This document shows, piece after piece, positions 3,465 to 52,990 of a stretch of DNA of 64,000 bases. The notes below the pieces were generated by a model that ran no database searches, had not been told where the DNA came from, and saw only the letters and a program-made list of their open reading frames with translations. The stretch lies in the NCBI GenBank assembly GCA_964016885.1, contig OZ024741.1, positions 148,304,001 to 148,368,000 of the forward strand, read 5' to 3'. A program made the position numbers and the translations under genes. This DNA comes from Eledone cirrhosa. Lineage: Eukaryota. Positions within the stretch are counted from its first letter, which is position 1. Every line of letters starts with the position of its first letter.

Positions 3465-13452
<9,988 letters not shown>

Positions 13453-16314: not shown

Positions 16315-16436
16315 TTAATTGAGGTCTTTTTCCACAATAATTTGTGGCTTAAAGTTGACTTCCTTTTTGGCTTCTTCAAATAGATATTCAACATGGTCTT
16401 GGGGTGCACATCCAATTCTGAAGAAGGTAATTTCAC
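16315..16436 (-). CDS. Fusion gene terminal exon (EITFFRIGCAPQDHVEYLF...DLN*)
   Basis: ctattttttag|GT GAA ATT; YrdC C-terminal R-x-G motif; TAA stop. Confidence 0.88.
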
Positions 16437-19400
16437 CTAAAAAATAGAGATGCTTTTTTAAGATAAACTTTTTCTCTCAAATAATTTACTTCCAGTCCCC
16501 TCTAATAAAGAAATTTGGGGTTCGATTCCTCATAAGTATCTCTATACACTCTTCTCTTGTCCAATCCTTACTAGCAGAGAAAGAGGACATTCAATGATGA
16601 TGATTATTTAATATAAAGCTAGCATTGCCAAATATTTTTTTCTACATTCATTATTCCAAATTCTTTCATAAGTTGTATTGTATTTTGAAGCTGTATGTTC
16701 TATGAACTCCTAATGTAGGGTTAATTGTTTTATGGATACAACACTGGCTCCAGACGAGGTACTGTAGGACACCTAACCCTGTAGATCAAGCTAATCCCAG
16801 TCTTTTTCATCAATATTTTATGTTCACTTTCATGTGGGTCAAAGGCTGTGATTAAACTGGTTGGAGAACCATATCTTGCTCATATGTTCCATGTTTAGCA
16901 TGGTTTCTATAGCTGGATGCCTTTCCTAATACCACACTAAAATGTTAAACAGTAACAGACCTTGTATTCAATGGTGTATAAAACATAGATATTTGGTAAA
17001 TCACCACTGTCTTAACTTAAGGTGAGGTTCAGAGTTCCATGTTGGAGCCTCTCTGTGATCAGTTGGCCTGCAAGAAATAGCAGTCAAACTACACTTTACA
17101 GCCTTGATTAATATAGGTAAAGTAAATGGGCCTCCATAAGCTTCAATGATGAATGTTTCAGTTGTCTGATCAACCAGAATAGCTTTTTTTTAAAAATTGA
17201 GTAAGTGGCTGAGCATTCCCAGACACATGGGTGTCCTCTAATATAATTCTGTGACATTCAGTTTGACAAGATTGACTCTTTAAATTACAAGTAGAATCTA
17301 TTTTATATTATATAATGTAGGTGGCTGAATATTCCATAAACATGTACCCTTAATATGATTTTCAGTGTGACAAGGCTGGCTCTTTGAATTACAGGTAATC
17401 TACTCAATTTTACTCACAAGTAAATGACACTTGCATATACTATATTGATATATTTGATAATACAGACCTGGGTATAGCAAGCATTTTAAGGTCCTAAAGC
17501 AAGGGTTAGCCTAGTGGGCCTCATGACATTTCATTCTCAACATGAAGTTGTTTATGGACAATGTTTTATGGCTGGATGTCCCTCTTGGAGCCATCTCTTA
17601 GTTCATGCAAGGATACATTGTAGCTACTCTAAACTAGATACATACAGTGCAATATAGTCCTGTAAATGAAGATGGTTACAACTGGAATATCTGATCATGG
17701 GTCTGCTGAATGGGCAGGAGGGGGGTGTTGGTCAGGCACTAAACAACAATCAGGTTCTAAACAGAAGTATTTACCTTGACTGATATTTAAACAGTTTACC
17801 ACAGTCGATGGAGCAGTTTCGCGAGATTCTCCATCACAAATCATGCCATCGATTTTGTGACCTGTGAGAAACAAAAAGATATATCATAATTAATTAGAGA
17901 ATAATAACTAGTTATTTTTTTCTTGTCATGACACATTCATTAAAATTTGTTAGCGATACAAAATTAATGAATAAACAATTAAATATCATATCCCTTGTTG
18001 GGTATGTCCAAAGAATGGAGGATATTTATTACTGAGACAAATACGCTACTTATATTGTACTACTAGAAAATTTATATCAGAGTAGGCCCCCAGCAGATAT
18101 ACAGGGATGTGGCTAACAAACTACTGCAGTTGGCCCACAGGTACTGAGGACAACAAACCTGTATCTGATACCTGAGGAGCTAGGGGATCAGTTCATATGT
18201 GGTGACATGAAGGGTATCCAGCCGTAGAAAACCCATCGGGATTTCTCTTCAGCTGTGTCAAAGACAACAACCTCCCAAGTGCCATGAGAAAATGCATTCT
18301 GTAGAGTGCAGTAACCTATGTCTGAGAGGTCAGTAGTTCTGACACTGTCTGTGACAACCTGTCCAACTCTTGCTAGCAGGAAAAATGGACATTAAATGAT
18401 CTCTATCCCAGTGATCATTGCTGCTTCTAATAGACAACTTTTGACTAACAATATGTCTTGGGCCAATGAGGGGAGCCTCCATGTGTTCAACATTTTAGAA
18501 ATTGCTGCCCAAACCCTCACAGGTCACTTAAAAAGACTAAATTAAATAATGTAGTCTTGGGTGGTCAAATCTGGAATGTCTTTGGTTACAAGTCTGCTTG
18601 ATCAGTGCCTGGTTTGGGACTCAACAACATGACTATATCTGTGTGCTGGATCTCTGCAGGTTTGTTGTTTGGACAACAGAATAGCCTGCTTGTGAAATAC
18701 ATAAGTGGATGAGCATTCTACAGGCATATGCTCTCTTAACGTAATTCTCAAGGAGATCCAGTGTGGTAAGGCTGGCTCTTTAAATTACAGGTACAACTGA
18801 TTTTGCCAGCTGAGTAGACTGGAGCAATGTAAGATACAGTGTCTTACCCAAGGATACAATGTGCTACTAGGAATAGAATTCATGACCATGCAATCATGAG
18901 CTGAACACCCTAATCCCTAAGCCACATACCTTAACTTACAAAACACAACTAAGACAAAATATAATAACAAACCTAAGCTTTCAAGGACCATATCATGGTG
19001 AATACTGTCTTCTCCACCACTTGGGTTGGCTGAACTCAAAGCCACAGGACCTGTCAGTTGTGTCAAATAAGCCAAAATCGAAGAATCAGGAATCCGAATA
19101 CAAACACTATTTTTATTTCCAATATATTCTACAGCATCACCAAGTCCTAGATTTAGCAACCACTCGCCCTTTGGTACTACACAACTTATTTTACCAGGAT
19201 AACACAAGCGCATAAAAGCCCATAGAAGGTTGCAGAAATCAGGTTTTGCTTCCTCCAGTTGCTTTAGATTTGACAGACAGATGCAAATTGGTTTTTCAGA
19301 AGGTCGCTCTTTGACTTTGTAAATGTTTCTTATAGAACTTGGTATCTTGCATAATGCTGCCAGTGCATATACTGTATCAGTTGGTACACCAACGATTCCA

Positions 19401-22400
19401 CCATCAGTTATTATTTTGGCAGCTTTTAGTATGGCAGAAGTACGTTTGGACGTAAATGTTGGACATATCTTGGTCAGTCTAACTGGTGGCTGGCTTTCCT
19501 ATAATGAAAATGTTACAACTTATCTTCAATGATAAAATATATTAAGTATATTAACTCTTAACATTCTAATTATTGAGCAGAAAATACTTAAAAACAAGTT
19601 TGTTAATTCAAATATTTATATCAACTTTATTAGGGAAAATTTGCAGTAATCTAAAGACTTGCATTTTTAATGTGATGCAGCTAGAATAAGGTAACACATC
19701 ACATAATTTTTATTATTTATGAAAATATTCAGTTTAGCTGTCAAGATTATTTTAAGTTAAGAAACCAGATTATTGCAATCTAGACCAGGTATAGATTAGT
19801 CTTAAGTGTTAGTGAGAGAGAGGCTGATACTTATTTTATCAATCTCTATTTGTCGAGGACACAAACAAACAGTACATGTAAACTTAGACACAGTTGTATA
19901 AAAGAACAATTCAAAATGTTCTTACTTTTAATATAGGATCTCCCAAAGGTACAAGATGGCCCTGTAATGTTCCATTTGTCATTCCCGCAAAGGTTCCATA
20001 GAGTGAGATAATTCCTTCAATAAGAAAAATTATTTTCTCATATATTTACATATAATCGTTTCCTCCACACCACCCCTATCTGGATATGTCTTATTAGTTA
20101 CTTTTTTACTATTTTACTGCTTTCAGACATTGGACTGCAATCATTCTGATGCACTACTTCGATGGCTTTAGTCAATTGTATTGACCTCAGCTCGTTTTTC
20201 ATGTCTAGAACATATTTTATCTATCTCTATATATAAAGAGACGTTCACATACATATATCTATCTATATACTACTAAAACTCTGTGATTGCTTGCTTGCTT
20301 GTCTGTAATGTAATACAGCCATAAGGGCGCATAATGGGAAAATACTTTGAAAGGAACTTAACCCTGAAATGGGAATACAAATGGAAAAAAAACAAGTTTC
20401 GCATAAATTGGATCACAGGTTTCCGAGGAGAATGGAAGAGAGAGAAAGCTGGTGGTGGTGTATATATATATAATAAAGGAGGTGTGGTAAGGAACCAGAT
20501 GGACCATAATGCACCAGAGTACTCAATACTTAGGGTAGTAGAGTGGGTAATAGGAAAATGTATGACCCTGATGGCAGAGCTCAAGCTGTTTCGAAGGCTA
20601 TTTCTGGACTAAATTAGAATTTTTAGAGTGGTAAATAAATAGCCAAACTTTTCAAGGGGTAATTCCTTATATGGGAAGATTGTAGTTGTCAAGAGAGATT
20701 GGTCAAAATTTCTTGTAAACAGAATTAAGTCTATCATGACAGTGGGTGGGAAGTGGTGTGGCTGAACTTGCCTGGAGAACAATGAGGGAGTGGGTGGAGC
20801 CGGTCAAGTGTTGAAAGTGAAATCTGTACAGCAAATTCTAAGGAGTGTTTATGAAAATAGGCCAGAGGAAGCAGGAGAAAAAGGATTCCAGGGAAAATAG
20901 AGAAGAGTTATAGAATGGGTAAATCAATTGAGATTAATAAAACAAATATAAATCAATAAAACAAATATAAACATAAAATTGGATAGTAAGAAGTGTATAG
21001 AATTCACTTTCAAAGCTTGACCAGCTCCACCCACTCCCTCATTGTTTTACAGGCAAATTCAGCCACCCCACCTCCCACCCACTGCCACGATGGACTTAAT
21101 TGTGTTTACAAGAAATTTCGACCAATCCTCTTAACAACTACAATCTTCCCATATAAGGAATTACCCCTAGAAATTTAGTCCAGAAATAGCCTTCGAAACG
21201 GCTTGAGCTCTGCTGTGGGGGTCATAGATTTTCCTACATATATATGTGTGTGTGTATGTGTCTATGACCAGTGTATATAGATCACATATATACACACATG
21301 CATATATGTATACACACACATATATACACACATGCATATATGTATACACACACATATTTATATATATACATACACACAAGTATATATATGGGCCTTCCAG
21401 TTTTATTTCACATTATATACATGTCTGTGTATATTTTAATTATCTAAAAATTATTTTTAAGTGAACGTGACCCGACGGGTCACGGGTGGTTTAGTATATA
21501 GATAAAATCTATTTGTTTTTCTTATGTAAAATTGCCACAATACATATATCAGCTATGAAATAGTTGAATATATTGGGTAAATTACTCTTGGTGATGGAAA
21601 AAAAGATAGACAGCGACTACAGCAGTCATCTCTGTCAACGTTTTTGTTTGTGAGTCAAACATTCTAACCAATAATCCACACACTTTCCTTGACTGAGACT
21701 AAATTGGGGCTATAGACTACAATAACAATGCACACACTCCCATCTGTACCAAAATCATCCCCTCTTCCAATCCTACTACCACACCACCTCACTATAGTCC
21801 TCCCCCTCCATTCAAAGGAATACACAAGGTACAAGCTTACCTGCGAGCAAAGCTGTGACGAAGTTCATCCACGGCTGATGAATACCAAAACATGTGATGA
21901 CGAAAGCTATCATGTTGAGTTCAAAGAACAGGGTGAACGGGATCCATATCTTATGAAATGACATGACGAAGAACATACCCAGGGTATGTAGGGTGATTAC
22001 AGCCAGTGATGCTGGCCGGAGAGCGAAAGCAAGGGAGGCTATGAAGATAGAAGAGAAATACATGAAAATCATATAAAAACTTCTATTGTTAAGGTTAAAC
22101 AAGCAGGGCCTCTTCTTCACCCACTTATTTCTGAGAGGGGGTGCAGAATTAGCAGACACACTTTTTAGAAGAAACTATCTCCAAATGATTTGGCTGGATC
22201 TCCAATTAAGACCAACTGAGCTTGTGGATGTCATCCAACCATCTTGCTCATGGTCTACTTCTGGATCGCCTGTCAGTTGGATTTGCCCATAAAATCTGTC
22301 CTGCAATTCTTTTCTTACATATTTTAACCATAAGTATACATTGTATAAGAATCGAGGAAAGAGGTCAGTAATTCATTTCTTTATTATCTCTGATTTCTTT

Positions 22401-25400
22401 GATACTGTGCTGGATTTTCGTGTTAAGACAGGAGCTGAGCTCTCAACTGATCACCATCTAGTTATCTTCAACCTGAGACTATCTAAAGTCAAGAAAACCC
22501 ATAAAACTGGGGTCAGGATCAGGTATGTGGGTACTATTGTATGCAAATTCAGAGAACTCCCTGTACAAACTTGGATGTCAAAACAGAGTGGGGAGACAGG
22601 GCCTTCAAGAAAAAAATTTAAAGGCAGAACAAAATTGCTTTGGGTCCTCAAGAGTGGCATAGTAAAGGAAAGACCAATGATACAAATGACATGTTTTAAT
22701 GCATGGAAGACAATTACACAGACTGTAGACATAGTATTAAATAGATTAGATGAAGCAGATGGAGAAAATCAAGTATCTTGGGGTCATACTCAGGAGTGAT
22801 GGATGGAAGCTGAATTAACTGCAAGAATTGCAATAATGGAGTAACATTTCTTGATAGTGTTCAGAGATCAGAGAGTTGTTCCAGATAGTGCCACTATTTC
22901 TCTGAATTGAGAGATTGCAGCTCCGATATTATGGGTATCTAGTTAGAATGTCTCAGGAAAGAATCAAAGGACAGATTTTATGGGCAAAGCCAACTGAAAA
23001 GTGATGATGGTTGCTTCCAATAAGACTCTCAGGAAGGTATGTCCGAGAATTTTCCCCAAAAAACCATCTCAGGAATAAATGGCTGGAGAAGAAGGAAAAG
23101 AAGTGAACAGGACAAGTATCTTAAGAAGTTTAGAGACATTTTAGATAGCCAATAAATTATTGAAAAATGCCTAATTATTCAAAATGAGAGGTTTTGTACA
23201 CAAAGTGAGTGCAAAATATAGAATAAAGAGCATACATACGATTTATTAAAAATATAGACCAGCAAATCCAATAAAATGTGTGCACAAATAGCATATAAGT
23301 TTTTGCTAAACTTCCACAAGTATATGAACATCTGGCAACGTAGAGCAACAGGGCTACTCCAGTGACTAATAGCCATGGTAAACATTCAGTGCCGTGTGTG
23401 ATCTCCAAAGAAGAAATACATATGCATGAGATACTGTTGCCAAGAAAGCAAAGGGTTTCGACCACTTCATCAGGTGCAAGGCTTTCGTCATAATACTTTA
23501 CTTTGGCACCAACACTCCTGCAAAGAATATCAGAATTTTTTGTTAAATTTTTATTATTACCCCCATCTCTAAGATGTGTGTAATAGTAAAAAAAAAAATT
23601 AATTTTAAGGGTGGTTGGTTTATAGGTTTTGTTAGAAATTTGAAAATGAGTATGGCCTTCAAAACTGTCGTCAATTACTTGTTTTCTGTGGTTCCACCAC
23701 CCAAGAACTGCATAACACCCACCCCAAAGATGGTGTAATAAAAATTTACCAGAAATTTTTTGAGAGTTCGTCAGTCATTCAATCACTAGTAAGTGGAAGT
23801 GAAAAGCAGTACAAACCTTGTGCAAGCTGTTAGTCTCTCAAAAAGATGGCGCAGCTTTTCAACATCGTAGATCTCTGCACCAACGTAAAGGACAGTTTTT
23901 TCGGCAATTGAGTTAATCATATAGGACATTGACATGAAGAGACTAAATATAGCAATTAAACAACATGGAACTCCAAAGGTGAAATTGTAAACAGGTATAG
24001 GTATGTGATCAAGAGAAAGAATAATAAGCAAAGTGAAGAGTAAGTTGTATAAATACAGGATTTTAGTTTGGCACATTGAACATACCAACAAGATCAACAT
24101 AACTACCAACAAAGCCCATTGGCCATAAAAATTAGTGCGAAAGGTTTCTATGCGTGCAAAATCCATGGTCACCAGAAGTTCAGTGATGCCTTTTGATGTC
24201 CAGAATATTGTATAAATGATGTACACAATTGCATTAAAGAAATCTTGGCGGAGAAATGAATAATAGCTGGCTGATAAGTGGCAAAATAAACTATTTAAGA
24301 ACATTGGGATTGCTGCACGAAAGTCTGTGAAGAAGCCAAAATGATAAAAAGCAAGCACTGTGGCAGGGACTACATTGCCTATAAACCCCATTCCCATTGG
24401 TTCAGCATATTTTGTGTTTTTCTTTTTTTCATTTTGTTTTGATTTTGGTGCTTTAGTTCGAACAAGAAGAACATCGTAAGGAGCATTTCCAAACCCAGGT
24501 AAAATATATCTTTGGCTGACTCCTTTTAATGTCATTACAACAACGCCATATATTCCAGATAAAGCAATAATGATTTCGAATGCAGCAGCAACACGTCTAC
24601 CCCAGAGAAAAAATAGACCAACACCTTCAAAAATCAATGCGATCATGATAGCAACCAGGACTGGAGGCATGATGTAGTTCACTGTGGCAGCACACACACT
24701 GAGGATGACAGAGAGAGCCATGAAACCAATCATTCCAGGTAAGACTCCATATTGCATTGTTGTTTGTGGCAAAGATGTCATCAGTATATGGTTGATACCT
24801 TGAATTGTCCAAAGGGAGGCAAAGACAATGAAAGCAGATCCAGTCAGGTGGTCATTACGTCGATAAGACATAAACCCGGCTAGTAATTGCAGAAATCCTC
24901 CAATCACAATCAAATGAACACCTACAATATAAAATAATACTTATTAATTACATGTCACACTTTACAAGTCTAATTGATTACTTGTTATATTGACACACTC
25001 TGTCCTTTCATATGGGATGGGGTTGGACCTCAGATACTTACGACAGCAAGTGTTCTAGTTCTTTGAACAGCAAAATAGCCTGCTCATGAAATTAATGTAC
25101 AAGTAGCTGAGATTTGTACAGACACATGTACCATTAATGTAGTTCTAAGGGAGATTCAGCTTGACACAGTGAGTGACAAGGTTGTCACTTTGAATTACAG
25201 GTGCAACTAATTTTTTTCAACTGAATGGACTGGAGCAATGTGAAAATAAAGTATCTTGCCCAGAGACTCAACGTACCACTGGGAATTGAACTCACAACCT
25301 TAAAATCATGAACCAGGCATCATAACCAGTAAGGCACGTGTCTTCACATCCTTTCATTCAAATGTTACGAGTATGCTATGTCTACAAGTTTACACTTCCG

Positions 25401-26683
25401 CATGTTTCAGACCAAAACTTTTTAGTCAATCTTATGTTCAGATGTCACTGCTGTCATCTAGGGGATGAACCCTTTTGATTATCAACCCACCCAAAACCGC
25501 CTCTGCTTCTATGAAATAAAACGATCCATTTTTAAAACTTCATAATTAGATTAAAATCTTTCAACATAATTTAATATATATATGTCTCAAAAGTCATTTA
25601 ATAATGAAATAGTTAATCATTTTTGTAAATCCTTCCAAATTCTTCATTAATTAATTGGAATGCAATATATTTAATTTAAAATATGCATACGAAAGGGTTA
25701 AAATATTTTGTGAAAGACATCTAACAATAAGGCTTTAAAACAGTTTAACAAGGCTTGTAATCTATGGACTTTACCAGATAAGGGTCAGATGCATGTTTTC
25801 ACTGCTCAGCTAAGGCAGCACTGACAAACAGATAGTTTATCACTGAGGGCCAGAGGATTGTTTCCACTGCTTAGCTATGGTGCATTTCATTTTCATTCCA
25901 ATCTTTGTGTAGCGGCTATGCTTTCAGTTTTTCGTAAAATTTTTCTGCTGTTATTTTATTTTACTTATTTATCTAGTCCAGCGAGCCATCGGGCATTGCC
26001 AAAATGCATGTATGGCCAATCTGCTTCTGCTAAAACTCTAAATAAAATTAACACCCATACACAAATAAGGGTTCATTTCACTTTATCTAGGTAGCACATA
26101 AATTTAAAACAACAAAGAACCATAATCGGTGCTTACAAATCCATTGATCATATAGAATTACACCCAAAAAATAACCTCATCCTATAACACTAAGCTGTAT
26201 CGCTTCATCCATGCGATAATATTCTATTATTCTATTAGTGTAGTGAAAGAACAGTGGTAAGATTTTAAAATTGAAACATTTATAAAACATGAGAAAGAAT
26301 ACATAACCATCGCTACCCCAATGATACGAACCTGGATAGTGTGAGAGAATGATCGCTGCTATACAGAAACCCAAATGCAATCAGCCTTGTGGTCCCAAGA
26401 GAGGGAATGGTGAAAGCCTTACTCCAGAGGATAGTGATGGAGACATATTTAAATAGGATACCAACTCACAGGGCTCACTCTTGTTGGTGGCTAACTCTAA
26501 GTAAAAGGTAAAATGTGAGAACTTACCAGCAAGGATGAGAGCAGGGGGAGAGCCATTTTCATTAAGGATGTTCTCCACAGCTACTACAATGGCTGCCATA
26601 ATGTTAGCGATGAGCCCAAGGGCACCCGGCTCAGCATACAATATAGCAGCAAACGCTTCATTTTCTTGTTTAGGTGTTTCCAT
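16315..26683 (-). CDS. 853-aa fusion protein: three GPR1/FUN34/YaaH (SatP/Ady2-type) membrane repeats plus a C-terminal YrdC/Sua5 (TC-AMP synthase) domain. Coding exons: 26683-26527, 24921-23817, 23517-23240, 22038-21841, 20014-19926, 19498-18973, 17861-17775, 16436-16315
   Basis: All 7 introns are GT-AG with matching phases (1,2,1,1,0,1,1), and the 2562-nt CDS is open to TAA at 16317-16315. Channel motifs: YAEPGALGL, GGFLQLLAG, YAEPMGMGF, LYGTFAGMTN..VPLGDP. YrdC motifs: VPTDTVYALA, KERPSEKP, YPGKIS, IRIP, SSANPSG, PSTVV. A splice acceptor just before 26691 implies an upstream exon. Confidence 0.9.
17775..17861 (-). CDS. Fusion gene exon 7 (HKIDGMICDGESRETAPSTVVNCLNISQ)
   Basis: ctcacag|GT CAC ... 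CAA G|gtaaat; YrdC 'DG...PSTVV' motif. Confidence 0.9.
18680..18925 (-). mobile_element. Second tRNA-headed SINE family; copies at about 25070-25350 (-), 15875-15995 (-), 57810-58080 (+), 1760-1910 (+)
   Basis: Recurrent TTGAATTACAGGTACAAC..GACTGGAGCAA..GTCTTGCTCAAGGA..GAATTGAACTC core. Confidence 0.7.
18973..19498 (-). CDS. Fusion gene exon 6 (YrdC/Sua5 domain core)
   Basis: cattatag|GAA AGC ... TTA G|gtttgt; encodes GGIVGVPTDTVYALA, KERPSEKP, SSANPSG. Confidence 0.95.
19926..20014 (-). CDS. Fusion gene exon 5, the 89-bp linker exon (last TM of repeat 3, GIISLYGTFAGMTNGTLQGHLVPLGDPILK)
   Basis: ttttcttattgaag|GA ATT ... TTA AAA|gtaaga. Phase 1 to 0 is exactly what is needed to join the channel exons to the YrdC exon. 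Confidence 0.85.
20262..21494 (+). mobile_element. Non-autonomous Helitron-like element in a fusion-gene intron
   Basis: 5' TCTATATACTACTAAAA followed by (GCTT)n; 3' hairpin CGTGACCCG-A-CGGGTCACG (21466-21484) followed by TTAG|T. Confidence 0.55.
21841..22038 (-). CDS. Fusion gene exon 4 (repeat 3 TM helices)
   Basis: tttctcttctatcttcatag|CC TCC ... GCA G|gtaagc; hydrophobic, phase 1 to 1. Confidence 0.85.
23240..23517 (-). CDS. Fusion gene exon 3 (N-half of channel repeat 3)
   Basis: ttgcag|G AGT GTT ... AAT C|gtatgt; encodes VETLCFLGNSISC...FYWICWSIF. Confidence 0.85.
23817..24921 (-). CDS. Fusion gene exon 2 (rest of channel repeat 1, all of repeat 2)
   Basis: Long hydrophobic ORF 23786-24913; tgtag|GT GTT CAT ... 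ACA AG|gtttgt. Confidence 0.92.
26527..26683 (-). CDS. Fusion gene coding exon 1 (repeat 1 TM1 signature YAEPGALGL)
   Basis: tttcag|GTTTAAAG-ATG...GCT G|gtaagt. Confidence 0.85.
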
Positions 26684-28967: not shown

Positions 28968-31900
28968 ATCATCATCATCATCATCATCATCACCGTTTTA
29001 CGTCCGTTCTTCCACGCTAGCATGGGTTAGACGGGTTGTCCTGTTGTGGGCAGTGTCTGGTCGGCTGACCATGCCTTGCTCATACAGGAACTGATCTGGC
29101 TTGATTTCTACAGCTGGATGCCCTTCCTAACACCAACCTCATTTACAGTGAGTGCTGGGTGCTTTTTCGTGGCGCCTACACGTCCACTTTACAGTGTGGG
29201 CTGGGTGCTTTTTTGCCGTGGCACCTCCACGACCACCTTGCGGTGGGGGGAGTGGGGGCATATTGTTTATATGCTTCAGCATGTACCCATGGGAGGTCGG
29301 GTACCCTGTATTACTGCGTGACGCCAGAAGTCACGGTCGTGTGTCATTGACTTTGAGAGGTGTAGTTGGGTAAGGTCAGCTTTTATCACCTCATCCCAAG
29401 TCATCTTGGGTCTCCCCACTCCGCGGTTTCCATCAACTTCTAGTGCTCTGCACCTTTTTATGCAGCTGTCATCTTTCATACGCATCACATGTCCATACCA
29501 GCGTAACCGCCTCTCCTGCACGCAGCATTTGATTCCTCTTATGCTCAGTCTCTCTCTCAATTCCTTTATGCTTTGTCGTTCACGTATATTACTGTTACAC
29601 ATCCATCGGAGCATGCAGGCTTCGTTTCTCTCTAATCTACGTAAGTCTTCCACCTTCAGCGCCCAGGTCTCACTACCATGCAACATCGCTGTTCGGATAC
29701 ACGCATCATACAGTCTGCCTTTCATTCTGAGGGAGAAGCCTTTTGCAGCTAGCAGTGGTAGTAGTTCCCTAAACTTCTTCCATCCCGTTCTTACCCTAGT
29801 TATTGTACTTTCTGAGCACCCACCTCCGTTGCTAATTCGGTCACCTAGGTAGCAGAAGCTGTCTACTGTTTCTACAGGGCCCTCCCAGAGATTGGTGGTA
29901 CTTGTTTCCTGTGGCTGTTTGCTTGCTGTTTCAGCACAGCTGCTGCATGTGAATCCTACATTCTTAATTAAGCTTCCTGAGATCCCGCTACATCTCTTGT
30001 GTACCCATTGTTTGCATTTGGGGCAGAGAATGGAGTTCCTACCTACACCTTTCCTACATACTGAGCAAGGCCATTTCCCTGAGGGGATCTGGGTTCTGTT
30101 TTCTCGTCTACTTATAAGGACCTTAGTCTTTGTCATGTTGACTTTGAGGCCCTTTCTCTCTAGTCCCTGCTTCCAGGTTTGGAATTTATTCTCTAGTTCT
30201 ACCATAGATTCAGCTATGAGTGCGAGGTCATCAGCATACAGGAGTTCCCATGGGCATCCGGTCTTAAACTCCTCCGTTATTGCCTGCAGGACTATGATGA
30301 ACAGGAGAGGGCTAAGAACAGAGCCCTGGTGGACCCCAACCTGTACGCTAAATTCCTCGCTATACTCATTGCCAATCCTAACTTTGCTGACTGCTCCCCT
30401 ATACATGGCTTGTACCGCTTTCACAAGCCATTCATCTACTCCTAGTTTTCTAAGAGCCCACCAGATTACTGCACGTGGAACTCTGTCAAAGGCTTTCTCA
30501 AGGTCGACAAATGCCAAGTAGAGTGGCTTACTTTTAGCTAGGTACTTTTCCTGTAATTGCCTCACAAGAAAGAGGGCATCAGTGGTGCCTTTCCCTGGTA
30601 CAAACCCAAATTGCATCTCGTCTATATTCACCCGGTCCCTAATCAGCTGTGCTATAACTCTTTCTGTTACTTTCATGACCTGGTCCATCAACTTTATACC
30701 TCTATAGTTTCCTCTATCTAGTGCATCGCCTTTACCTTTGTAGCAGTTGACAATGATGCTACTGCACCAATCTTTTGGTATGGCCCCCTCTAGTATTACC
30801 TGGTTAACGATACGTGTGGTTATAGTGTGACCTACAGACCCAGATGCCTTCAGCATCTCGGCAGCTATACCCGATGGACCGGTTGCCTTCCCTATCTTCA
30901 TATCTCTGATTGCCTTACTTACTACGCTGCCGCTGACTTGTACTGCTGGTCCCTCTATAGGGTCTACGTGGGGTAGGGTCTCTTCTTCCCATGCATTCTC
31001 CTCATTTAGTAATCTATCATAATGACTCTTCCATGCATCTTTCTTCTCAGCACTTGTGAGGGCAAGCTCACCTTTATCATTCCGGATACACTTCTCTCCA
31101 ATGACATCACAACTATCTCTGACACACTGCCTCGCAATCTTGAATACCTCCTGTTTCTGGTCCTCACGTTGTAAAACATGCTTGAATTTTCTATCCTCTG
31201 CTTCCCTCCTAGCTAAGTATACTTGTCGCCTAGCTTCCCTCTTGGTCTCTATGTAATGTACCCTGCTCCCCCCGTTCTTCCATTCTTTCCATGCCTGTCT
31301 CTTGGCCTTGACTGCTTCATCTACCTTATTGTTCCACCACCAAGTCACTCTCCTGCTGCTTGAGGTCTTACTCCAGCCACAAACCTCATCCGTCGCCTCT
31401 AGTAAGTTATTTTTTAGGAACTCCCAGTTCTCTTCTACGTTAAATGTCTCTATCTGTTCTTCTTTACTGTCGTAGGCGTTGAGTAAAATATCTTTAAATC
31501 TGTTACTGGTTGAGGGGACTTTCAGCTTCCAGATCTTTCTTCTCCAGGTTGGCCTCTGTTTCAGGGCTCGTCTAGTTCTGACCGTGAGGTCGCTGACAAC
31601 TAAGCTATGTTGGGATGTACATTCCTCACTAGGGAAGGCTTTTGTGTTTACGACCGTCCATCTGTCACGTCCTCTGATGAGGATAAAATCTAACTGACTA
31701 GAGTGCTCCCCTGATCTATAGGTGATCAGGTGGTTGTCGGGTTTTTTAAAGTTTGTGTTACATATCGACATGTCATTGGCGTCGCAGAATTCTAGAAGTC
31801 TGAATCCTTCCTCATTCCTTGTGCCAACTCCATGGCCTCCATGTACTCTATTGAAGCCGTCGCAGTGTTTACCTACGTGTCCGTTAAAATCTCCTGCAAT

Positions 31901-33105
31901 GATTAGGAAGTCCTTGTCGTCTGTTAGAGCAGTAGTGTGTATTAGGGACTCGTAAAACCTATCCTTAAGTTCGTCTGGCAGCGCCGATTGGGGTGCGTAA
32001 GCTGATATTATTGTGGTAATTGTCTTATTCAGGACTAGTCTGAGTTTAATGATTCTTGCATTTACCCTGTACACTGAGATTACTTTATCTACCCACTTGT
32101 CAGCTAATAGTATACCTACACCACCCATCCCATCGTCATTTCCCACCCAGAAAAATTTGTAGCACTGGCTTTTTCCTACAAGGACTCTAGCAGACCCTCT
32201 TCTCCATCTAGTCTCTTGCACACAGCATACATCAACTTCCTTTCGCTCTAGCATTTCTACGATTTCTCCTGCTCTTCCTTTCATTGAGCCTACATTGATG
32301 GTACCAACTCGGAGTTTTGGGCATTTGTCGACACTCGTAGGGGAGGGTCTCTGGGTTGGCGCTTCACGTGGGTGCTTGGTAGCTCGCAGATTCATATTTC
32401 ATCTATTGATTCAGAGTTGCTCGTGTATTCCCAGCTCATCCATCCATAACGGTGGGAAAATTGAGGGCTAGAAGAACAGTGGTGGTGGGGTAATGGCAGG
32501 GTGTGTTGGGATGCGCCAGAGGAGGAGAGAGTTAGTTAGGCAGGTAGTAGCAGCAGCAGTGGAAATGGCATGCTAGGTTTGATTGGTCGAATAGACTATG
32601 GTGGTGTGTGGGGGTGGGGGGAGGGAAATTGTGAGGTAGGAACTGAGGGTCGCATGGTAAATATCCAAGTTAATACTACATCAGTAAAATTAACAATAAT
32701 AACGTCATGAAAAAACTACTAAGAGAAACCCTCGAAAATTTATCGCTAATACAGCAGGGAAAATTTAACGCTAATACAGCAGGGAACATCATAATATTAA
32801 CGACAATATGTAGGCTAAAATACCTTCGTAGATTAGATGGATGGCTGGAAAAATTGGAATCAGCTCTAGTGATACATTTTAGCAGAGAAGAATGGGAAAG
32901 TGTCTTATCTCTTCAATATTTTCAGATTGAATGAATTAGGTTAAAGACAGGGTAGTAAGCCTTAAAGAAGTGCATAGAGAGGGGGGGGGGGGTAGGAACT
33001 GAGGGTCGCATGGTAAATAACTGAGAGAGATACAATAGGATTAGAATACCGCATGGTAAATATCCAAGTTAATAAGTTAATACTACATCAGTAAAATTAA
33101 CAATA
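28968..33105 (-). mobile_element. Full-length RTE-clade LINE
   Basis: Intact ORF, 3'UTR with (ATG)n tail at about 28968-28992, 5' region with an internal duplication, embedded in (TA)n. The 5' boundary is approximate. Confidence 0.9.
29276..32395 (-). CDS. RTE LINE ORF, 1039 aa: APE endonuclease, reverse transcriptase and PHD-type finger
   Basis: APE motifs: TINVGS, QETRW, SAYAPQ, GDFNGH, QLDFIL. RT motifs: NYRGIKL, QFGF, FVDLEKAFD, GVHQGSVLSP, LLYADD, YLG. C-terminus: RLRWYGH, GRPK. No stops. Confidence 0.96.
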   Translation of the reverse strand: MNLRATKHPREAPTQRPSPTSVDKCPKLRVGTINVGSMKGRAGEIVEMLERKEVDVCCVQETRWRRGSARVLVGKSQCYKFFWVGNDDGMGGVGILLADKWVDKVISVYRVNARIIKLRLVLNKTITTIISAYAPQSALPDELKDRFYESLIHTTALTDDKDFLIIAGDFNGHVGKHCDGFNRVHGGHGVGTRNEEGFRLLEFCDANDMSICNTNFKKPDNHLITYRSGEHSSQLDFILIRGRDRWTVVNTKAFPSEECTSQHSLVVSDLTVRTRRALKQRPTWRRKIWKLKVPSTSNRFKDILLNAYDSKEEQIETFNVEENWEFLKNNLLEATDEVCGWSKTSSSRRVTWWWNNKVDEAVKAKRQAWKEWKNGGSRVHYIETKREARRQVYLARREAEDRKFKHVLQREDQKQEVFKIARQCVRDSCDVIGEKCIRNDKGELALTSAEKKDAWKSHYDRLLNEENAWEEETLPHVDPIEGPAVQVSGSVVSKAIRDMKIGKATGPSGIAAEMLKASGSVGHTITTRIVNQVILEGAIPKDWCSSIIVNCYKGKGDALDRGNYRGIKLMDQVMKVTERVIAQLIRDRVNIDEMQFGFVPGKGTTDALFLVRQLQEKYLAKSKPLYLAFVDLEKAFDRVPRAVIWWALRKLGVDEWLVKAVQAMYRGAVSKVRIGNEYSEEFSVQVGVHQGSVLSPLLFIIVLQAITEEFKTGCPWELLYADDLALIAESMVELENKFQTWKQGLERKGLKVNMTKTKVLISRRENRTQIPSGKWPCSVCRKGVGRNSILCPKCKQWVHKRCSGISGSLIKNVGFTCSSCAETASKQPQETSTTNLWEGPVETVDSFCYLGDRISNGGGCSESTITRVRTGWKKFRELLPLLAAKGFSLRMKGRLYDACIRTAMLHGSETWALKVEDLRRLERNEACMLRWMCNSNIRERQSIKELRERLSIRGIKCCVQERRLRWYGHVMRMKDDSCIKRCRALEVDGNRGVGRPKMTWDEVIKADLTQLHLSKSMTHDRDFWRHAVIQGTRPPMGTC

Positions 33106-33259: not shown

Positions 33260-35137
33260 TCGTAAACAGCAATAACACTAACCATGTTAAGGCTGCGCAC
33301 AGTAGTGGAGTGGCTAGTGTGGCCATGTGTGAGAACTCCACGACCGTCAACAAGCAATTGCACAACAGGAAAAAGAACGGGATGTCGCATCTCAGAGTTG
33401 CTACACTTAATGTTGGCACTCTAACAGGTAGATCTGGTGAGATTGCAGAGATGCGGGAGAGAAAGCATGTGGATGTGTGCTGTGTGCAAGAGGTGCAAGA
33501 CTAATCGCAGGCAAACATCATAGTTATAAGCTTTTCTGGGTGGGTAATGATGATGGGTTAGGTGGGGGTGGACATATTACTGGCTGAGAGCTGGATCAAT
33601 AAGACAATAGAGGTAGTTAGAGTTAGTAATAGAATAATTAAGCTTAGATTAGTTGTAGGTAGGAGACTACTGACAATCATCTCTGCCTATGCTCCCCAGG
33701 CAGGCCTAGGTAAAGAAGAGAAAGACGGCTTTTACGAGCAACTTTTACAAACAGCCTCAATGACAGAGGACAGAGACATCGTTATGCTAGCAGGGGACTT
33801 CAATGGACATGTTGGACAGCTCCAGGATGGATACACTGGGGTACATGGTGGGAACGGTTACGGCTCAAGAAATGAAGAAGGAGTGAGGCTTCTTGAATTT
33901 TGTGATGCAAATGCACTAACCATTTGCAACACTAACTTCCAGAAGCTTACCAACCACCTAATAACCTACAAATCAGGTGAGCACATAAGCCAAATTGACT
34001 TCCTGCTAGTTAGACAGTGAGACAGACAGATGGTGTCAAATACTAAGGCTTACCCTGGGGAAGAATGTACCCCACAGCATAGTTTAGTCGTTAGTGACAT
34101 CTCAGTAAGCATGAGAAAGAATGAGAAATACAGGAAGGTGTGGAAAAGAAAGGTCTTGAAGCTAAATACCTTTCATTAAAATATAAATTTAGCAAAGCCC
34201 TTCAAGATGCGTACGACGAAAAAGATGACGATTTAGAGTTGCATGACATAGATGATAACTGGAATTTCTTGCGTGACAACTTACTGCAGGCTACTGAAGA
34301 AACTGGTGGTTGGGGCAGAGCTTCCATCAGACAGAGATTGACCTGGTGGTTGAACAGCACGGTAGATAGGGCCATTAGAGACAAAAGACTGGCATGGGAA
34401 ACTTGGAAAAATGGTGGGAGTAGAGATGGATACATAGCCGCTAAGAGAGAAGCTAGAAGTAATCGCAGTGATAGACTCATTTTTCCAATGCAGGTGGGTT
34501 CTATAGAAGTGGTTGATAGCTTCCGGTACCTAGGTGATCAGATTAGCATGGGAGGGGGGTGTTCCGAGGCCATAGTATCTAGAATAAGGACGAGTTGGAA
34601 GAAGTTTAGGGAGCTACTCCCTCTGTTGACAAAGAAGGGTTTCTCCCTGCATACGAAAGGACGGTTATGTGATGCCTGTGTCAGATGCGCGATGCTGCAT
34701 GGTAGTGAGACATGGGTAGCAACTGCAGATGATATGAGTCAGCTGGAGAGAAATGAAGCAAGTATGCTCTGTTGGATGTGCAATCTCAATGTGCGTGAAC
34801 GACCAAGCATGGACGAGTTGAGAAAGAAACTGAGTATAAGAGGGATGAGCTGTGGTGTGCAGGAGAGAAGGCTGAGATGGTATGGACATATGATGCGCAT
34901 GGAGGATGACCGATGGGTGAAGAAGTGCCAGGAAGTCCCAGTGGAGGGAAGACGCAGTAGAGGTAGACCACGAAAAACATCGGCGGAGGTGGTGAGAGCA
35001 GACCTCAGATCGCTGAAACTCACGGAGGAGATGACGAAGGACCGTGACAAGTGGAGAGATGCTGTGCTGAATAGGACCTGTCCCACCCTTGCAAGCAGGG
35101 AAAAGCGGACGTAAAATGATGATGATGATGATGATGA

Positions 35138-39932: not shown

Positions 39933-42332
39933 ATGGATTATTACAACATAACCAATTCAACTAAAGACATTCCTATACCTGGTAAATCTGAATTCACCAA
40001 ACTTCTAATTGAAAAAACCGACTCCTTTGTAAGAAGACTTAGATGGACAGCTTATTTCTATGACCAGCGCCTAAAAGGGAACTTCTATACCAAGGAACAT
40101 AACTTCCTCGATCATCTATTTAATTCTAGAAGAAATCCTCCTCCAACAAAAATCTAGTGCAATTCGAGGAAGAGTTAACAAATATTATAAAAAATCTTAA
40201 ATTCAAGAGATACCCTTACAAAGGACAAGAGCACCTTGTAAATCTCAAGAACACAATTTCAAACCTAAATTCCTCAAAAAATGTTTTAGTCCACTCTGAC
40301 AAAACCAATAATTTATATGGTATTTCCAAGGATAATTATAACAACCTTATCCTAAAGCAACTTAGGAAAAAATATCGTAAAACCAACCATGATAATTTAG
40401 AATCCATAAACTTTGAAGCCTCTGAGATTATGTCAAAACTTGGCATCGGAAAAAAGACCGAACCATTCCTCCCAAGAACTCCGAGGATAAATCTCAAGGA
40501 TCACAAAAACAATTTTCGCACTGAACTACCTGTTAGATTAATCGCCCCCTCTAAATCAGATCTGGGGGTTATTAGTAAAGCCATCTTGGATAGAATTATC
40601 CCACAGGTTTGTTCTAATTGCTCTTCTTTGAACTTAAATTTATGGTTTGGTACTTCTGAAGTGATTGGCTGGTTCAACAAATTGAATAATAAAAACAAAC
40701 TAAAATTTGTTCAATTTGATATTGCCAGCTACTATTCTTCTATTTCGCCTTCACTTCTCAACAATGCTCTATCTTTCGCATTTAAATATTCTGACATCAC
40801 CACAGATGAACTTCACATCATTCTCACCGCACGTAAAACCATCCTTGAGTTCAACAATGAATATTGGACCAGAGCTGATACCTCTAACAACTTCGACATC
40901 ACAATGGGAGCATCCGATTCATCCCAATTGACAGATTTAATTGGTATCTTTATTTTGAACTCTTTGAGTCGGAAAATTCCTCAACTTCATGGTGGAATTT
41001 ATCGTGACGATGGACTCTTTACTATCTTAAACTGCAACATAGTTAACCTTAATATTATTAAGAACAATATACGTAATCTCTTTAACCAACATAACCTAAA
41101 AATTGAATTTGATAACAGCATCAAACTAGCTAATTTCTTGGATGTATCTCTTAATCTTGACACTGGCCTATATTACCCTTACCATAAAAACAATGAGAAC
41201 CTAAATTATGTTAATTTTAAATCTAACCACCCTACTAATCTTAAGAATGCTATAGTTAGTAATATTGGAAAAAGAATATCTAACCTATCTTCTAATAAAA
41301 AACATCTTTGATGCTAACGCCAATTACTATAATAACGCGCTTTCTAAAGCCGGCTATCCTGATAAAATCAAATATAATAAAGAAACAAATTCTAGAAGAT
41401 CTTACAGTAGAATAATTAATCATGATCATTCCAATAACTTTAATAAAAGACCTAGATACAAAAACATAATCTGGTATAATGCTCCTTTCTCCATCTCTAT
41501 TAATAATAATATTCCTAAATTATTCTTTAGTGCCTTAAATAAATGCTTCCCTCCCTCACATATCTATAGTAAAATATTTAACAAACACACTATAAAATTT
41601 TCCTATTCGACATCCTCCAACATTTCCAACATTATCTCTCAACACAACAATAAAATACTAAATACTAAATCTCTTCCTTCCAACACTGAATATCATAATA
41701 ATAGTAATAGTACTCCCGACGTCATTGTAAACTCTAGGCTAATTTCTGCAAACCCAAATACAACGTCAAACACAACTTCGCTAAATGTTCTTAATCCCAT
41801 TCTAAATCAAGAAACCATTATTCCTATCGCAAATAACTTCTCCAATCCAATTCCTTCTATAGATAACACTAGGTCACTCGTTAATAATCTCTCTAATCGC
41901 AATTGCAATTGCCCTGCTAAAAATAAATGTCCTCTCAACAACCATTGTCTTGATAAAAACTTAATCTAAGAATGTAAAGTTATAACTGACACCAATTCCT
42001 TCACCTATTTTGGCTCCACTTCCACCTCCTTTAAAGCTCGTCTTTATAATCATCATTCGTCTTTTAAATACCAACTTAAAAGAACCAACACGGCTCTCTC
42101 AGAACTCATATGGTCCTTGAAAGACAAAAATATTAAATATAACATCTCCTGGAAAAAGGTTTCTTCTGCTTCTTCAGACTTGAACAGTTCTCTATCCAAG
42201 ACTTGCAATCTCTGTCTAAATGAAAAATTTACCATTATATCTAATTTAGATTCTATAATAAATAGAGGCACTGACTTGTTTTCTATCTGCTTGCATAAAT
42301 TCCACAGAACTTTCCATAAAGTATACAGCTAA
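39933..42332 (+). pseudogene. Disrupted RT plus GIY-YIG ORF of the Naiad-type element
   Basis: ORF pieces broken by frameshifts near 40150 and 41300 and a TAA at 41967-41969. Confidence 0.88.
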
Positions 42333-43478
42333 TATCCTAAACTTTATCAATTCAGAATCCTTTTCTCAAAGGCACATATATATATATATACTTCTTTAAA
42401 AATATACCCATCTTTCTACCTTATTTCAAAGTTATTTATTATACATTATATAATACTTGTTACTCATTCTATATCACTCCTATTTATCACTTCCCTTTCT
42501 TCCTTTTCCTTTTCTTTTCTTTTTCTTTTAATTTCTAACCCCTAATCTGTACCTTTTCTCACTGTGCCTAACATAGAAACAATTATTACACTATACAATA
42601 TATTCTTACTTTATATCACCTTGAAAAAATCCTTCGTAAACATAAACATTTTTTTTTTTTGACGTTAGATTATTCATCCTCTATTCATTATTTTTTTCTC
42701 ACTTTCATCTAACTTATTCATGCTCATCTCACAATATATCCTTACTTACATTACTTTTGTTTTTTTAATAATACATATCAACATTTTCTTTCCATCGCAC
42801 ATATTATTAAACCCTTAAATATTATTCTTAATACATATTAACATTTTCTTTCCATCGCACATATTATTAAACCCTTAAATATTATTCTTAATACATATTA
42901 ACAATTTCTTTTCATCGCAAATATTATTAAACCCTTCAATATACAAACCTTAACTTTACATTATTTTTCTCTTCGTTAATTTTCAAATTCTTTTAATTTA
43001 TACATTATCTTTCAACGGTTTTTCAACCTCTCTATGTAAAACAATATATTTTTCTCAGTTATAAAAGCTATCCCCCTCTCTCTATCACCCATCTCTCCTC
43101 CTATCTCATCCTTCCTCATTATACTCCTCCCCTCCACTTTTTACTCTCATCTCCTCCTCTTTTTCACCCCCCCCCCCTCAAATCCCCCCCCCCAATATCA
43201 CACATCAATCTAAAACTACTTTTCATATGTTGATTTAAAACTGCACTATCCACAAGTATTTTTAACCTTCATATCATGTCTTCCCATTTTATTTGATGAA
43301 AACACAAATGTTATTGCATGATGATATTTGTTTTTGAAATGCGCATAATAAAATACATGGAACTCATTTAACCATCTTTTGATCTTATATATTATGTATA
43401 CTCCAGTCCTACAAACTGTAGAGTGCTTCTTATCCGATATCTGCATTGCTTTATTGTACTACAATAAAACTCACCTCC

Positions 43479-43510
<32 letters not shown>

Positions 43511-43513
<3 letters not shown>

Positions 43514-46500: not shown

Positions 46501-48676
46501 AATTACTAAAACAGAAACAAATTCAAGGTACGACCAATATTCTATCATATATCTCAACACACAACCCAAGAAATGCGGAAGCTTACAACACTATTCACAA
46601 GAACATCCCACTATTGAAACAAGACCCAAGAATGAAAAAAGCCCTTGAAACACACAAAATAATCAAAAGCAAAAGACAACCAAAATCACTGAAAACATTA
46701 CTCACCAATGCCAAATTACCTACCACAAACCCACAACCAACTGTCAAAAAATGTGGTCGCTCTAATTGTGGAACTTGCACTCACCTCATTGAAGGCAACA
46801 CGTATACATTTCAATCAGGACAAAATTTTGCTGTAAAAAATCACTTCACTTGCTCATCAAAAAATCTAATTTATGCCATTAAATGTAAAGGATGCAATGA
46901 AGATTATATAGGACAAACTAAACTCACACTCAGAAACAGAATGACAGTTCATCGCCAACAATTACGAGATCCAACCACGAGACAGATACCACTAAGCGCG
47001 CATCTAGACATATGCGCAACTAATAAGACACCCAAATTCCAAGTCTTCCCATTTTACCTTTGCGCTGACAATACAACAGAACAAATACGAATAAATAAGG
47101 AAAATATGTTTATTCAAAAATATAGACCAGCATTAAATATGGTTTAATATACATTATGTCAACACCATAACATGCTAACCATCCAAACAGACGCACACAC
47201 ACACACATAACACCTTCTACTTTAGAAAATAAAAACCCGAACTAAATAAACCTTAACATACGTTTGCGCTGACAATACAACAGAACAAATACGAATAAAT
47301 AAGGAAAATATGTTCATTCAAAAATATTTCTACTAACGGAATCATTCCCCCCCCCCCACACAAAATATATATTCTCTTCATCTTAACATGCTAACCACAC
47401 TCCCACACACACATAACACCAATACACACACACATACCCCCCCCATAACCCCTTCCCCCATTTCTACTAATAGAATCACTTTCCTACAAACATACACACA
47501 CACAAAATATATATATTCTCTCCATCTTAACATACTCCCACGCACACACATAACACCCATATATATACACACACACACCTCCCTCCCCCATTTCTACTAA
47601 TAGAATCATCTTCCTATACACACACACACACACGCAAGCACACAAATAAAGATACATATCTCTATTTTCTTTATTTCAATAGAAAGTCTGAATTCTGACA
47701 TTCCAGCGAACCAGCCATATTCACTGAACCAGAACAATTCTACCATCCCATTTCCCTTGACCATTATCTTTTGTTTGTCATAAAATTCTCTAAAAGGCTA
47801 CAAAATAAAGTCCCAAATATGGGCGCGAAATTTAATGAACTTGTTCACGTGACAGTCATAATTTCATTTATAACCAATCAAATTACATTTATTTAAAAAA
47901 GCCTTCGTGAGCCACTTTTTTTAAAGTAAAAAGAAATTCAAACAAACTGACGCGAAAGCTGATCTGCTTATTCACGTGACTGCATCAACCAACCAAACTT
48001 CACTCATATATGAAAAAACAACCTGCCATATTCACTGAACCAGAACAATTCCCCCCATCCCATTTCTCTTGACCATTATCTTTTGTTTGTCATAAAATTC
48101 TCTAAAAGGCTACACAATAAATTCCCAAATACGGGCGCGAAATTTAATGAACTTGTTCACGTGACAACCATAATTTCATTTATAACCAATCAAATTACAT
48201 TTATAAAAAAAAGCCTTCGTGAGCCCCTTTTTTTTAAGTAAAAAGAAATTCAAACAAACTGGTGCGAAAGCTGATGTGCATCAACCAACCAAACTTCACT
48301 CATATATGAAAAAACAACCACCTTGTTTGAAGAACTTTGTAACGCGAACTGGCGCGAAATTTATTATACTTATTGACCAACCAATCAAATTACTTCTCTA
48401 AAAACCTGGCGTTTCGAGCCACTTTTTTCCATATAAAACAAGTAACACTCTAAGACCAACCAGATGTGAGAAAAACCACAGACCTTCCATCTCAACTCTA
48501 CTTTTGAAAAGCAGAAGAACTGCGAAACCGGTAAAGGAACCAAATAAATATATATATATTTAAAAAAAAATAAGACTCCAGTTGCATTTTCTATTTCATC
48601 TTTTTTTCTTTATACTTTCACTCGTGTAGGACACCTCGGTTATTTTTCATTTTGTAAAAAAACCTCACTTTCTAAT
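43511..48676 (+). mobile_element. Penelope-like element, Neptune-type, with inverted 5' pLTR pieces (43511-44150), partial direct pLTR (44157-44420) and a 3' pLTR with an internal duplication (47685-48676)
   Basis: RT 45306-46295 (LYGLPKIHK, LRPIVAG, FDVVNLYT, GAAMGT, RYLDD, LPFLD); GIY-YIG 46614-47147 (CGRSNCGTC, NLIYAIKC, YIGQT). Several stops; (TA)n flanks. Confidence 0.9.
48501..48536 (+). ncRNA. Minimal hammerhead ribozyme with U3-A8 core variant; copies at 44247-44282 (+) and 43579-43614 (-)
   Basis: CTT-TTGAAAA-GCAG(AAGAA)CTGC-GAAA-C-CG-G-T-A^-AAG. Confidence 0.6.
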
Positions 48677-52888: not shown

Positions 52889-52990
52889 TAAATATATAAA
52901 ATAAAACACACACACACGGATATAACGCATTCGCAAACTAAGCACACAACACACAAAAACAAGATGGTGTAGGACAGAACAAAGGAGAGA

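Follow-up and report, generated by a model that had tools for sequence, protein, structure and literature searches.

A stretch of 64,000 nucleotides from Eledone cirrhosa (assembly GCA_964016885.1, contig OZ024741.1, positions 148,304,001 to 148,368,000 of the forward strand; this whole stretch is the window below) carries on its minus strand a gene that joins three channel repeats of the AceTr/SatP type to a YrdC/TsaC enzyme domain. This gene, which we call gene A, is real and adds a member to a family that has been described before without an assigned function. We tentatively read it as the catalytic subunit of an inducible channel-enzyme that would operate, beside a second fused paralog (gene B), in the metabolite module of the cis-aconitate decarboxylase IRG1L.

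A channel and an enzyme in one reading frame

The eight coding exons of gene A, every one with an AG acceptor and a GT donor, join in phase into 2562 nucleotides, that is 853 amino acids (aa) and a stop; of 20,000 random chains with the same exon lengths, none stayed open. Exon 5, 89 nucleotides long, takes the frame from phase 1 to phase 0. The initial annotation, made from the letters of the window, had proposed this very model, with exon 5 leading from the membrane part into the YrdC exon without a stop, and both the splice sites and the open frame bear it out.

Relatives carry the same fusion. The protein is 94% identical to a related protein (P0002), and exon 2 is 95% identical to a protein of Octopus bimaculoides. 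A search with exon 2 matched 237 proteins of 644-2000 aa, and all but two of the 120 listed carry PF01300 (the search with gene B, introduced below, listed 120 of 369 matches). Seven A-type proteins of 844-891 aa, known from Logan contigs of 2.8-3.5 kb only, align through the membrane-YrdC junction; contigs so short that cross the junction are therefore taken to be spliced transcripts of relatives. Full-length fused proteins, for which the initial annotation had suggested a search in other metazoans, are found across molluscs and chordates, some of them on transcript-sized contigs. These sequences leave us practically certain that the fusion is real. The AATAAA signals at 19714 and 19631 in intron 5 could raise the suspicion that transcripts end there and that the model is an artefact of prediction or covers two neighbouring genes, but the intron is AT-rich, its position is the same in fish-like contigs, and the full-length fusions make this explanation extremely unlikely.

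Along the protein, coding exon 1 (26527..26683, minus strand, like all that follow) encodes aa 1-53, from the ATG, which agrees with residue 1 of Argonauta P0003, to the first transmembrane helix of repeat 1; it holds E18-P19-x-x-L22-G23-L24, the equivalent of the NPAPLGL motif, and N27 at the Phe of the FLY constriction. An AG acceptor 8 nucleotides before the ATG suggests an additional non-coding exon upstream. Exon 2 (23817..24921, aa 53-421) supplies the remainder of repeat 1, with the invariant residues G60, G61, Q64, R73, D76, H77 and W90, then a conserved basic linker and repeat 2. Repeat 3 is divided between exon 3 (23240..23517, aa 421-514, its first half), exon 4 (21841..22038, aa 514-580, further helices) and exon 5 (19926..20014, aa 580-609, the final helix). 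The YrdC/TsaC core lies in exon 6 (18973..19498, aa 610-785), with T649, T651, A654 (Gly in canonical YrdC), K672-x-R674, K678, R744 and S764-S765-x-N767; it continues through exon 7 (17775..17861, aa 785-814), which carries S803-T804, into exon 8 (16315..16436, aa 814-853), with R820 and the TAA at 16317-16315.

Exon 3 also contains an internal GT donor after 23435, whose use would drop 65 aa of repeat 3 (window 23240-23434). The octopod annotations P0001 and P0003 are without these 65 aa, as would fit that donor; among the 85 aligned A proteins, which do not include these two, none is without them. Because the stretch is kept in P0002 (64 of 65 residues identical) and has a homologous counterpart in Patella, we take the long form of exon 3 as the family norm; the shorter one is possibly an isoform.

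Three divergent channel repeats

Profile methods uphold the three SatP/Ady2-type repeats that had been proposed for the membrane part. Repeats 1, 2 and 3 of the A family match the bacterial AceTr profile with hhalign probabilities of 98.6, 94.8 and 93.9; the family profile matches the SatP structure 5ZUG (E 9e-11, with a second profile match at E 2e-8) and 5YS3 as well; and the gene A protein itself meets a small bacterial AceTr hidden Markov model at E 9e-15, 1e-5 and 0.07 for the three repeats. The Pfam comparison suggested with the initial annotation came out in part. PF01300 matches exon 6 (E 4e-27), while PF01184 matches none of the eight exons taken singly, none of 11 candidates in a genome-wide family search of E. 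cirrhosa and not P0002; the Patella protein P0006 is above its cut-off. Because profile methods do match, we ascribe the PF01184 null in E. cirrhosa to limited sensitivity. A BLAST comparison of the gene A protein with itself found no internal repeats.

The channel motifs have changed in an uneven manner. The NPAPLGL site reads E-P-x-x-L-G-L in A repeat 1 (E in 83, P in 83, L in 81 and G in 83 of 85 proteins), E-P-M-x-x-G in repeat 2, and is absent from repeat 3. The FLY site of repeat 1 is Asn/Ile/Phe, and the hydrophobic constriction is not kept: the Phe position holds Asn in 82 of 85 proteins in repeat 1, Asp or Asn in repeat 2 and Asn in repeat 3. In fact, it is polar in all five A and B repeats tallied (B repeat 1 lies outside the tally). 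According to the accessible text of PMC13316224, yeast ScAto1 carries succinate once this Phe is lost, the opened position admits dicarboxylates, and SatP itself carries succinate.

A complete active site, and a separate YRDC

Exon 6 also matches Sua5/TsaC structures, and the YrdC domain of A has an intact KxR/SxN site (K672, R674, S765, N767). The Thr-binding residues T33, S181 and R195 correspond to T649, S803 and R820, and the TsaC signature Thr/Ser138 to S764 (residue roles as given in the available parts of PMC10321239, PMC6004061 and PMC10484737). Across 131 A rows, which like the 121 B rows considered below are redundant and related, K672 and R674 are kept in 131, S765 and N767 in 130, a Thr or Ser at 649 in 131, S803 in 130 and R820 in 126. 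The Gly of the TVYG motif is replaced throughout the A family (Ala in 127 rows, Thr in 4); at this place 79 of 80 bacterial rows have Gly, as does the YRDC of E. cirrhosa.

This canonical YRDC, with intact motifs, is encoded elsewhere in the genome (C18:30.17 Mb). The fusion YrdC domains form a clade of their own (100/100), apart from it and from 16 bacterial rows, the YRDC being a single row on a long branch. The view that gene A is a paralog distinct from canonical YRDC has thus held up, and gene A is very probably not the main enzyme of the tRNA modification t6A (N6-threonylcarbamoyladenosine). In TsaC/Sua5, HCO3-/CO2 yields N-carboxy-threonine, which is then adenylated; the resulting threonylcarbamoyl-AMP (TC-AMP) is diffusible and unstable and gives a cyclic oxazolidinone carboxylate (PMC6004061, in the portion available). 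In line with the first option of the initial annotation, one could imagine A as a membrane-anchored auxiliary TC-AMP synthase that receives bicarbonate through its own channel and raises t6A in stimulated cells, with A and B as independent homodimers. The ATP- and Thr-binding residues and the TsaC signature Thr/Ser, all present in A, and the diffusible product would suit such a role, but an intact YRDC elsewhere and the family-wide replacement of the TVYG Gly speak against it, and it explains neither B, nor the mirror decay, nor the IRG1L link described below. We consider it improbable.

Two paralogs that decay in mirror image

Gene B, the second triple-AceTr-YrdC gene of the same genome, lies at C2:21,934,149-21,961,459 (L007, L009, L010). 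It has six coding exons and a long, poorly conserved C-terminal tail, and is the ortholog of O. sinensis P0216; the teleost names of the two genes are si:ch211-153b23.3 (A) and si:ch211-153b23.4 (B). With equal length of the longest contig as a linkage proxy for each cluster, A and B agree in 21 of 22 species that have both values, including scaffolds of 0.3-0.8 Mb, and locus ids of A and B are consecutive in Babylonia (twice), Nucella, Pecten, Mizuhopecten and Saccostrea echinata.

Conservation runs in opposite directions along the two proteins. In A, the columns conserved at 90% or more number 54 of 193 in repeat 1, 33 of 183 in repeat 2 and 10 of 175 in repeat 3; in B they number 6 of 190, 8 of 172 and 28 of 184, so that R1>R2>R3 in A faces R3>R2>R1 in B. 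Likewise, B repeat 1 has lost its match to AceTr (hhalign 0.3) and B repeat 3 has kept it (97.4). The YrdC domains are better conserved than any repeat (102 of 221 columns in A, 94 of 223 in B), and here too the paralogs differ: the Lys of KxR is kept in all 121 B rows, but its Arg column reads Gln in 98, Leu in 10, Asp in 4 and Glu in 3, so that the Arg is lost in at least 115. An invariant Arg follows four places further on (121 of 121), and a Trp stands at the His67 position.

Such a mirror decay is the pattern expected of a ring built from three plus three repeats of two different subunits. From these alignments we lean towards the view that A and B form a heteromer. Duplication of a homodimer, followed by complementary decay of the copies, would give the A/B pattern.

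Ties to IRG1L

Genes for VOC, YrdC, 2-oxoglutarate (2OG)-Fe(II) oxygenase and GAT proteins are syntenic to pIRG1 and IRG1L, which range over molluscs, amphioxus, lamprey, gnathostomes and platypus and are absent from therians (Szeligowski et al., 10.1101/2022.06.17.496652, as far as its accessible text goes). Outside E. cirrhosa, linkage of the IRG1L type is suggested by the text of that study and by one contig (L138, 180-4930), where A-type YrdC exons follow 1.4 kb after the end of an MmgE/PrpD (IRG1-like) gene. There is apparently no room there for the membrane repeats, and this YrdC is possibly a stand-alone form. In E. cirrhosa, pIRG1 lies on C21 with a PhyH-like exon head-to-head about 13 kb away. 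Two near-identical pIRG1 copies occur there (34.13-34.16 Mb and 24.24-24.26 Mb; L147-L149, L155-L156), their exons 97-99% identical, and the PhyH-like neighbour was found beside one of them only; they are either a segmental or an assembly duplicate.

Expression in zebrafish points the same way. There,.3 and.4 stand for A and B, and.5 is presumably a GAT-domain gene. Over 18 conditions, taken from the rows of the accessible tables of PMC8877790, irg1l correlates with.3 at r 0.88 and with.4 at 0.90, and.3 with.4 at 0.79; sult5a1, ch211-207n23.2 and.5 correlate as well (0.65-0.88), and the other 23 genes reach at most 0.52. Leaving aside.3,.4,.5 and irg1l, 25 genes were compared, and the two of them that stand out, sult5a1 and ch211-207n23.2, are perhaps induced together with that set. 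In the available parts of further studies,.3,.5 and irg1l rank as hubs within a single module of a weighted gene co-expression network analysis (PMC11140123); irg1l,.4 and.5 make up three of a top-5 list of upregulated genes (PMC9228135); and the top 50 genes of infection data in which 283 of 337 differentially expressed host genes go up include irg1l,.4,.5 and one PhyH-like gene, the direction for these four not being given in the passage (PMC6980646). PMC11489432 and a medaka preprint merely list the genes, as far as their available text goes. On this evidence A and B are probably tied to IRG1L in function.

The tie could also mean clearance, with co-induced genes that rid the producing cell of itaconate or its adducts and build no new compound. 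Repair is a frequent function of GATD3/DJ-1-like and VOC proteins. The module also seems to accompany the often mitochondrially targeted IRG1L/pIRG1 and, among the 240 A and B matches listed, to be absent with it from therians. No tested step, however, joins YrdC adenylation to itaconate turnover, and non-animal fusions have no IRG1 neighbour in the loci examined; this account is at least as improbable as the auxiliary synthase.

How the channel-enzyme might work

Given the paralog and the IRG1L link, we prefer a heteromeric channel-enzyme that belongs to an inducible module of immune metabolism to a channel that feeds bicarbonate to t6A synthesis. Gene A would be subunit A of a two-subunit complex, presumably in a membrane, and the A/B heterodimer, with three AceTr repeats each, would rebuild the six-unit ring of SatP. 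In the order A1-A2-A3-B1-B2-B3, the best-kept repeats B3 and A1 would touch, as would the most decayed, A3 and B1. A would hold the working YrdC site; B keeps the amino-acid and bicarbonate residues and, because the ATP-binding Arg is missing, would be regulatory or altered. The partners of the complex in an inducible module would be IRG1L/pIRG1, a 2OG-Fe(II) oxygenase, a VOC protein and a GAT-domain gene. Like TsaC, the YrdC domain of A might draw on CO2/HCO3- and ATP to adenylate an N-carboxy amino acid, toward a small molecule and not toward tRNA, and the pore, widened and polar through the change from Phe to Asn, might pass the product and/or itaconate across the membrane. The reading as a whole has our tentative preference; the small-product chemistry, drawn by analogy with TsaC, is a doubtful part of it.

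Two suggestions of the initial annotation are alive here. Export of a carbamoyl-type product belongs to the reading we prefer, and a YrdC sensor that gates the pore is its first rival: the AceTr ring would move itaconate (or succinate, or aconitate), YrdC would sense ATP, bicarbonate or an amino acid, and no product would be made. The polar FLY position and the succinate transport of SatP agree with such a gated channel, as do a B domain conserved like that of A despite the missing catalytic Arg and the GAF-like domain of non-animal forms (see below), a domain typical of regulation. The full catalytic set in essentially all A rows, the better conservation of YrdC than of any repeat and contig L138, apparently a YrdC-A beside IRG1 without a channel, all speak against it; we hold the gated channel to be rather unlikely.

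Several observations weigh against our proposal of an A/B channel-enzyme tied to IRG1L. The module is scattered in E. cirrhosa, with A (148.3 Mb) and B (21.95 Mb) about 126 Mb apart on C2, pIRG1 and PhyH on C21, an ElbB-like match on C5 and a VOC match at C2:416.1 Mb. The 140 longest non-repeat frames flanking A and B yielded transposon domains and MYCBPAP only, in a survey that short exons would escape. In Aquarana, A and B are on contigs of unlike length, and in Pinctada, Rhinophrynus, Microcaecilia and Cetorhinus they share a contig under distant ids. The authors of the IRG1 study, in its accessible text, see no obvious functional clustering in the block, and it is we who infer that their 'YrdC' genes are A and B. 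If L138 has a YrdC-A without a channel, the channel can therefore be dispensable; and neither IRG1 nor PhyH neighbours occur in the examined loci of the non-animal single-copy forms. IRG1L can be a mitochondrial-matrix protein (10.1101/2022.06.17.496652, accessible text), and neither A nor B has a basic, presequence-like charge in its N-terminal 30 residues. Finally, the expression data concern zebrafish orthologs and come from lists of selected differentially expressed genes.

An ancient pair with relatives of non-animal appearance

Among the matches listed, B orthologs come from cephalopods, gastropods, bivalves, amphioxus, lampreys, sharks, teleosts, amphibians, reptiles, birds and platypus; the range of A is the same but for the lampreys, which contribute no row. 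Names of therians, arthropods, annelids, echinoderms or cnidarians do not appear among the 240. The catfish Tachysurus vachellii has several A copies that are nearly identical (P0123 cluster), and Pelodytes has tandem ids (P0032/P0037), both of which suggest local expansions. Many bird and amphioxus fusion proteins (P0156 cluster, rows of the B search) are annotated simply YRDC or SUA5, and the family is therefore hidden in expression studies.

In a tree of YrdC domains (61 rows, with 16 of 80 bacterial rows and without the frameshifted L113) and in one of full-length proteins (43 rows), A and B are separate supported clades with molluscs outside vertebrates in each; gene A groups with the si:ch211-153b23.3 proteins (support 98/99 and 99, respectively). 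Introns tell of the same ancestry: four of five introns of octopus B are common to a bird-like contig (L137), and two of octopus A are exactly common to fish-like contigs, one between codons (phase 0, after exon 5; L121/L131) and one inside a codon (phase 1, before exon 8; L131, and also L138). Judged from these sequences the pair is ancient, being present in molluscs, amphioxus, vertebrates including platypus. A late transfer from vertebrates to molluscs was considered and rejected, as the tree positions and common introns make it unlikely; an older transfer between stem lineages may have taken place, given the inconsistent placement of amphioxus.

Single-copy triple-AceTr-YrdC proteins also exist in intron-poor contigs of non-animal appearance (L108-L120, P0161, P0168, P0169, P0325, P0326). 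These combine the KxR of A with the Trp of B, bear an extra GAF-like C-terminal domain and branch outside A and B; an Atlas search with full-length P0169 returned no usable match. The 80 best of 362 bacterial relatives share only 29-38% identity with the YrdC exon. Within 3 kb, these 80 loci hold no AceTr frame and no match to the octopus IRG1, PhyH or ElbB exons, and therefore no bacterial source cluster was found.

We can envision, as a speculation that we think unlikely in its full extent, that a biosynthetic gene cluster in the style of microbes, inducible in immunity and made up of IRG1L, 2OG-Fe oxygenase, VOC, GAT-domain gene and A/B channel-enzyme, came down to molluscs and chordates; it would make and export an undescribed ureido or carbamate metabolite beyond itaconate and was lost in therians. 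A would be catalytic and B a pseudo-enzyme, and the fusion would descend from a homodimeric GAF-bearing form that persists in the eukaryote contigs of non-animal appearance. With the A/B pairing, the divided catalytic residues and the IRG1L tie, the function of the family becomes testable in zebrafish, which has names for irg1l and both fusion genes and induces them together. If true, fish, birds, amphibians and farmed shellfish would own an immune metabolic pathway and a carboxylate/itaconate channel that therians lack, a YrdC domain would take part in animal small-molecule chemistry, and A and B would be a clear case of a homo-oligomer turned heteromer through complementary decay.

Other features of the region

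An uninterrupted endonuclease/reverse-transcriptase frame of 1040 aa, classed by eye as an element of the long interspersed nuclear element (LINE) type, occupies window 29276-32398 on the minus strand, and decayed copies lie at about 9400-11200 and 33500-35100. More reverse-transcriptase-like frames, some with nuclease-like C-termini, are found at 40130-47147 and are presumably Penelope-like. A run of N at about 52,990-53,190 marks an assembly gap. The MYCBPAP exon (L176:3930-4283, C2 near 148.41 Mb) is the sole non-transposon Pfam match among the long frames that flank A.

Comparison with known systems

The architecture is in print, contrary to the novelty that the initial annotation, aware of no functional description, had implied. 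Ghasemi et al. (bioRxiv 10.1101/2025.05.26.656167; iScience 2026, PMC13316224) describe, in the parts of the work available, a vertebrate Ato/AceTr-Sua5/YciO/YrdC fusion without a function. Its proteins of about 900 aa have three six-helix AceTr domains and a C-terminal Sua5/YciO/YrdC domain, fall into two clades and are proposed to dimerize into a six-unit ring, and the few protostome members are read as a possible transfer. Gene A falls within one of these clades. That work has two protomers that are not named as A and B; its accessible text and supplement mention neither adjacent genes nor a heterodimer, neither a split of the active site nor a link to IRG1L, and no GAF-bearing forms of non-animal type, and its figures may show mollusc rows. 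For the pairing, the split, the IRG1L tie and the GAF-bearing forms we found no match in the open-access literature searched.

The pIRG1/IRG1L block resembles our module in that YrdC, GAT, VOC and 2OG-Fe genes adjoin IRG1L/pIRG1 over an animal range similar to that of A and B. Its authors, in the text available, neither call the YrdC genes channel fusions nor treat the block as a pathway, and in E. cirrhosa the genes are scattered. Compared with the AceTr family (E. coli SatP 5ZUG, yeast Ady2/Ato1; PF01184), gene A repeats the homologous six-helix unit, but triplicated and fused, with an NPAPLGL equivalent of E-P-x-x-L-G-L type in repeat 1 only and Asn/Ile/Phe there in place of FLY.

With TsaC/YRDC/Sua5 (PF01300), gene A shares the fold family, KxR/SxN, the Thr-binding Thr/Ser/Arg and the TsaC-type Ser/Thr and Lys; it differs in its separate clade, its membrane tether, the Ala in TVYG and a paralog B without the Arg. 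The YrdC-like domains of TobZ and HypF work with carbamoyl phosphate and with a Kae1 domain in the same chain, and gene A has no Kae1 fused; in the accessible text of PMC9654439, they carry out carbamoylation outside tRNA and so offer a precedent for carbamoyl adenylation toward a non-tRNA product.

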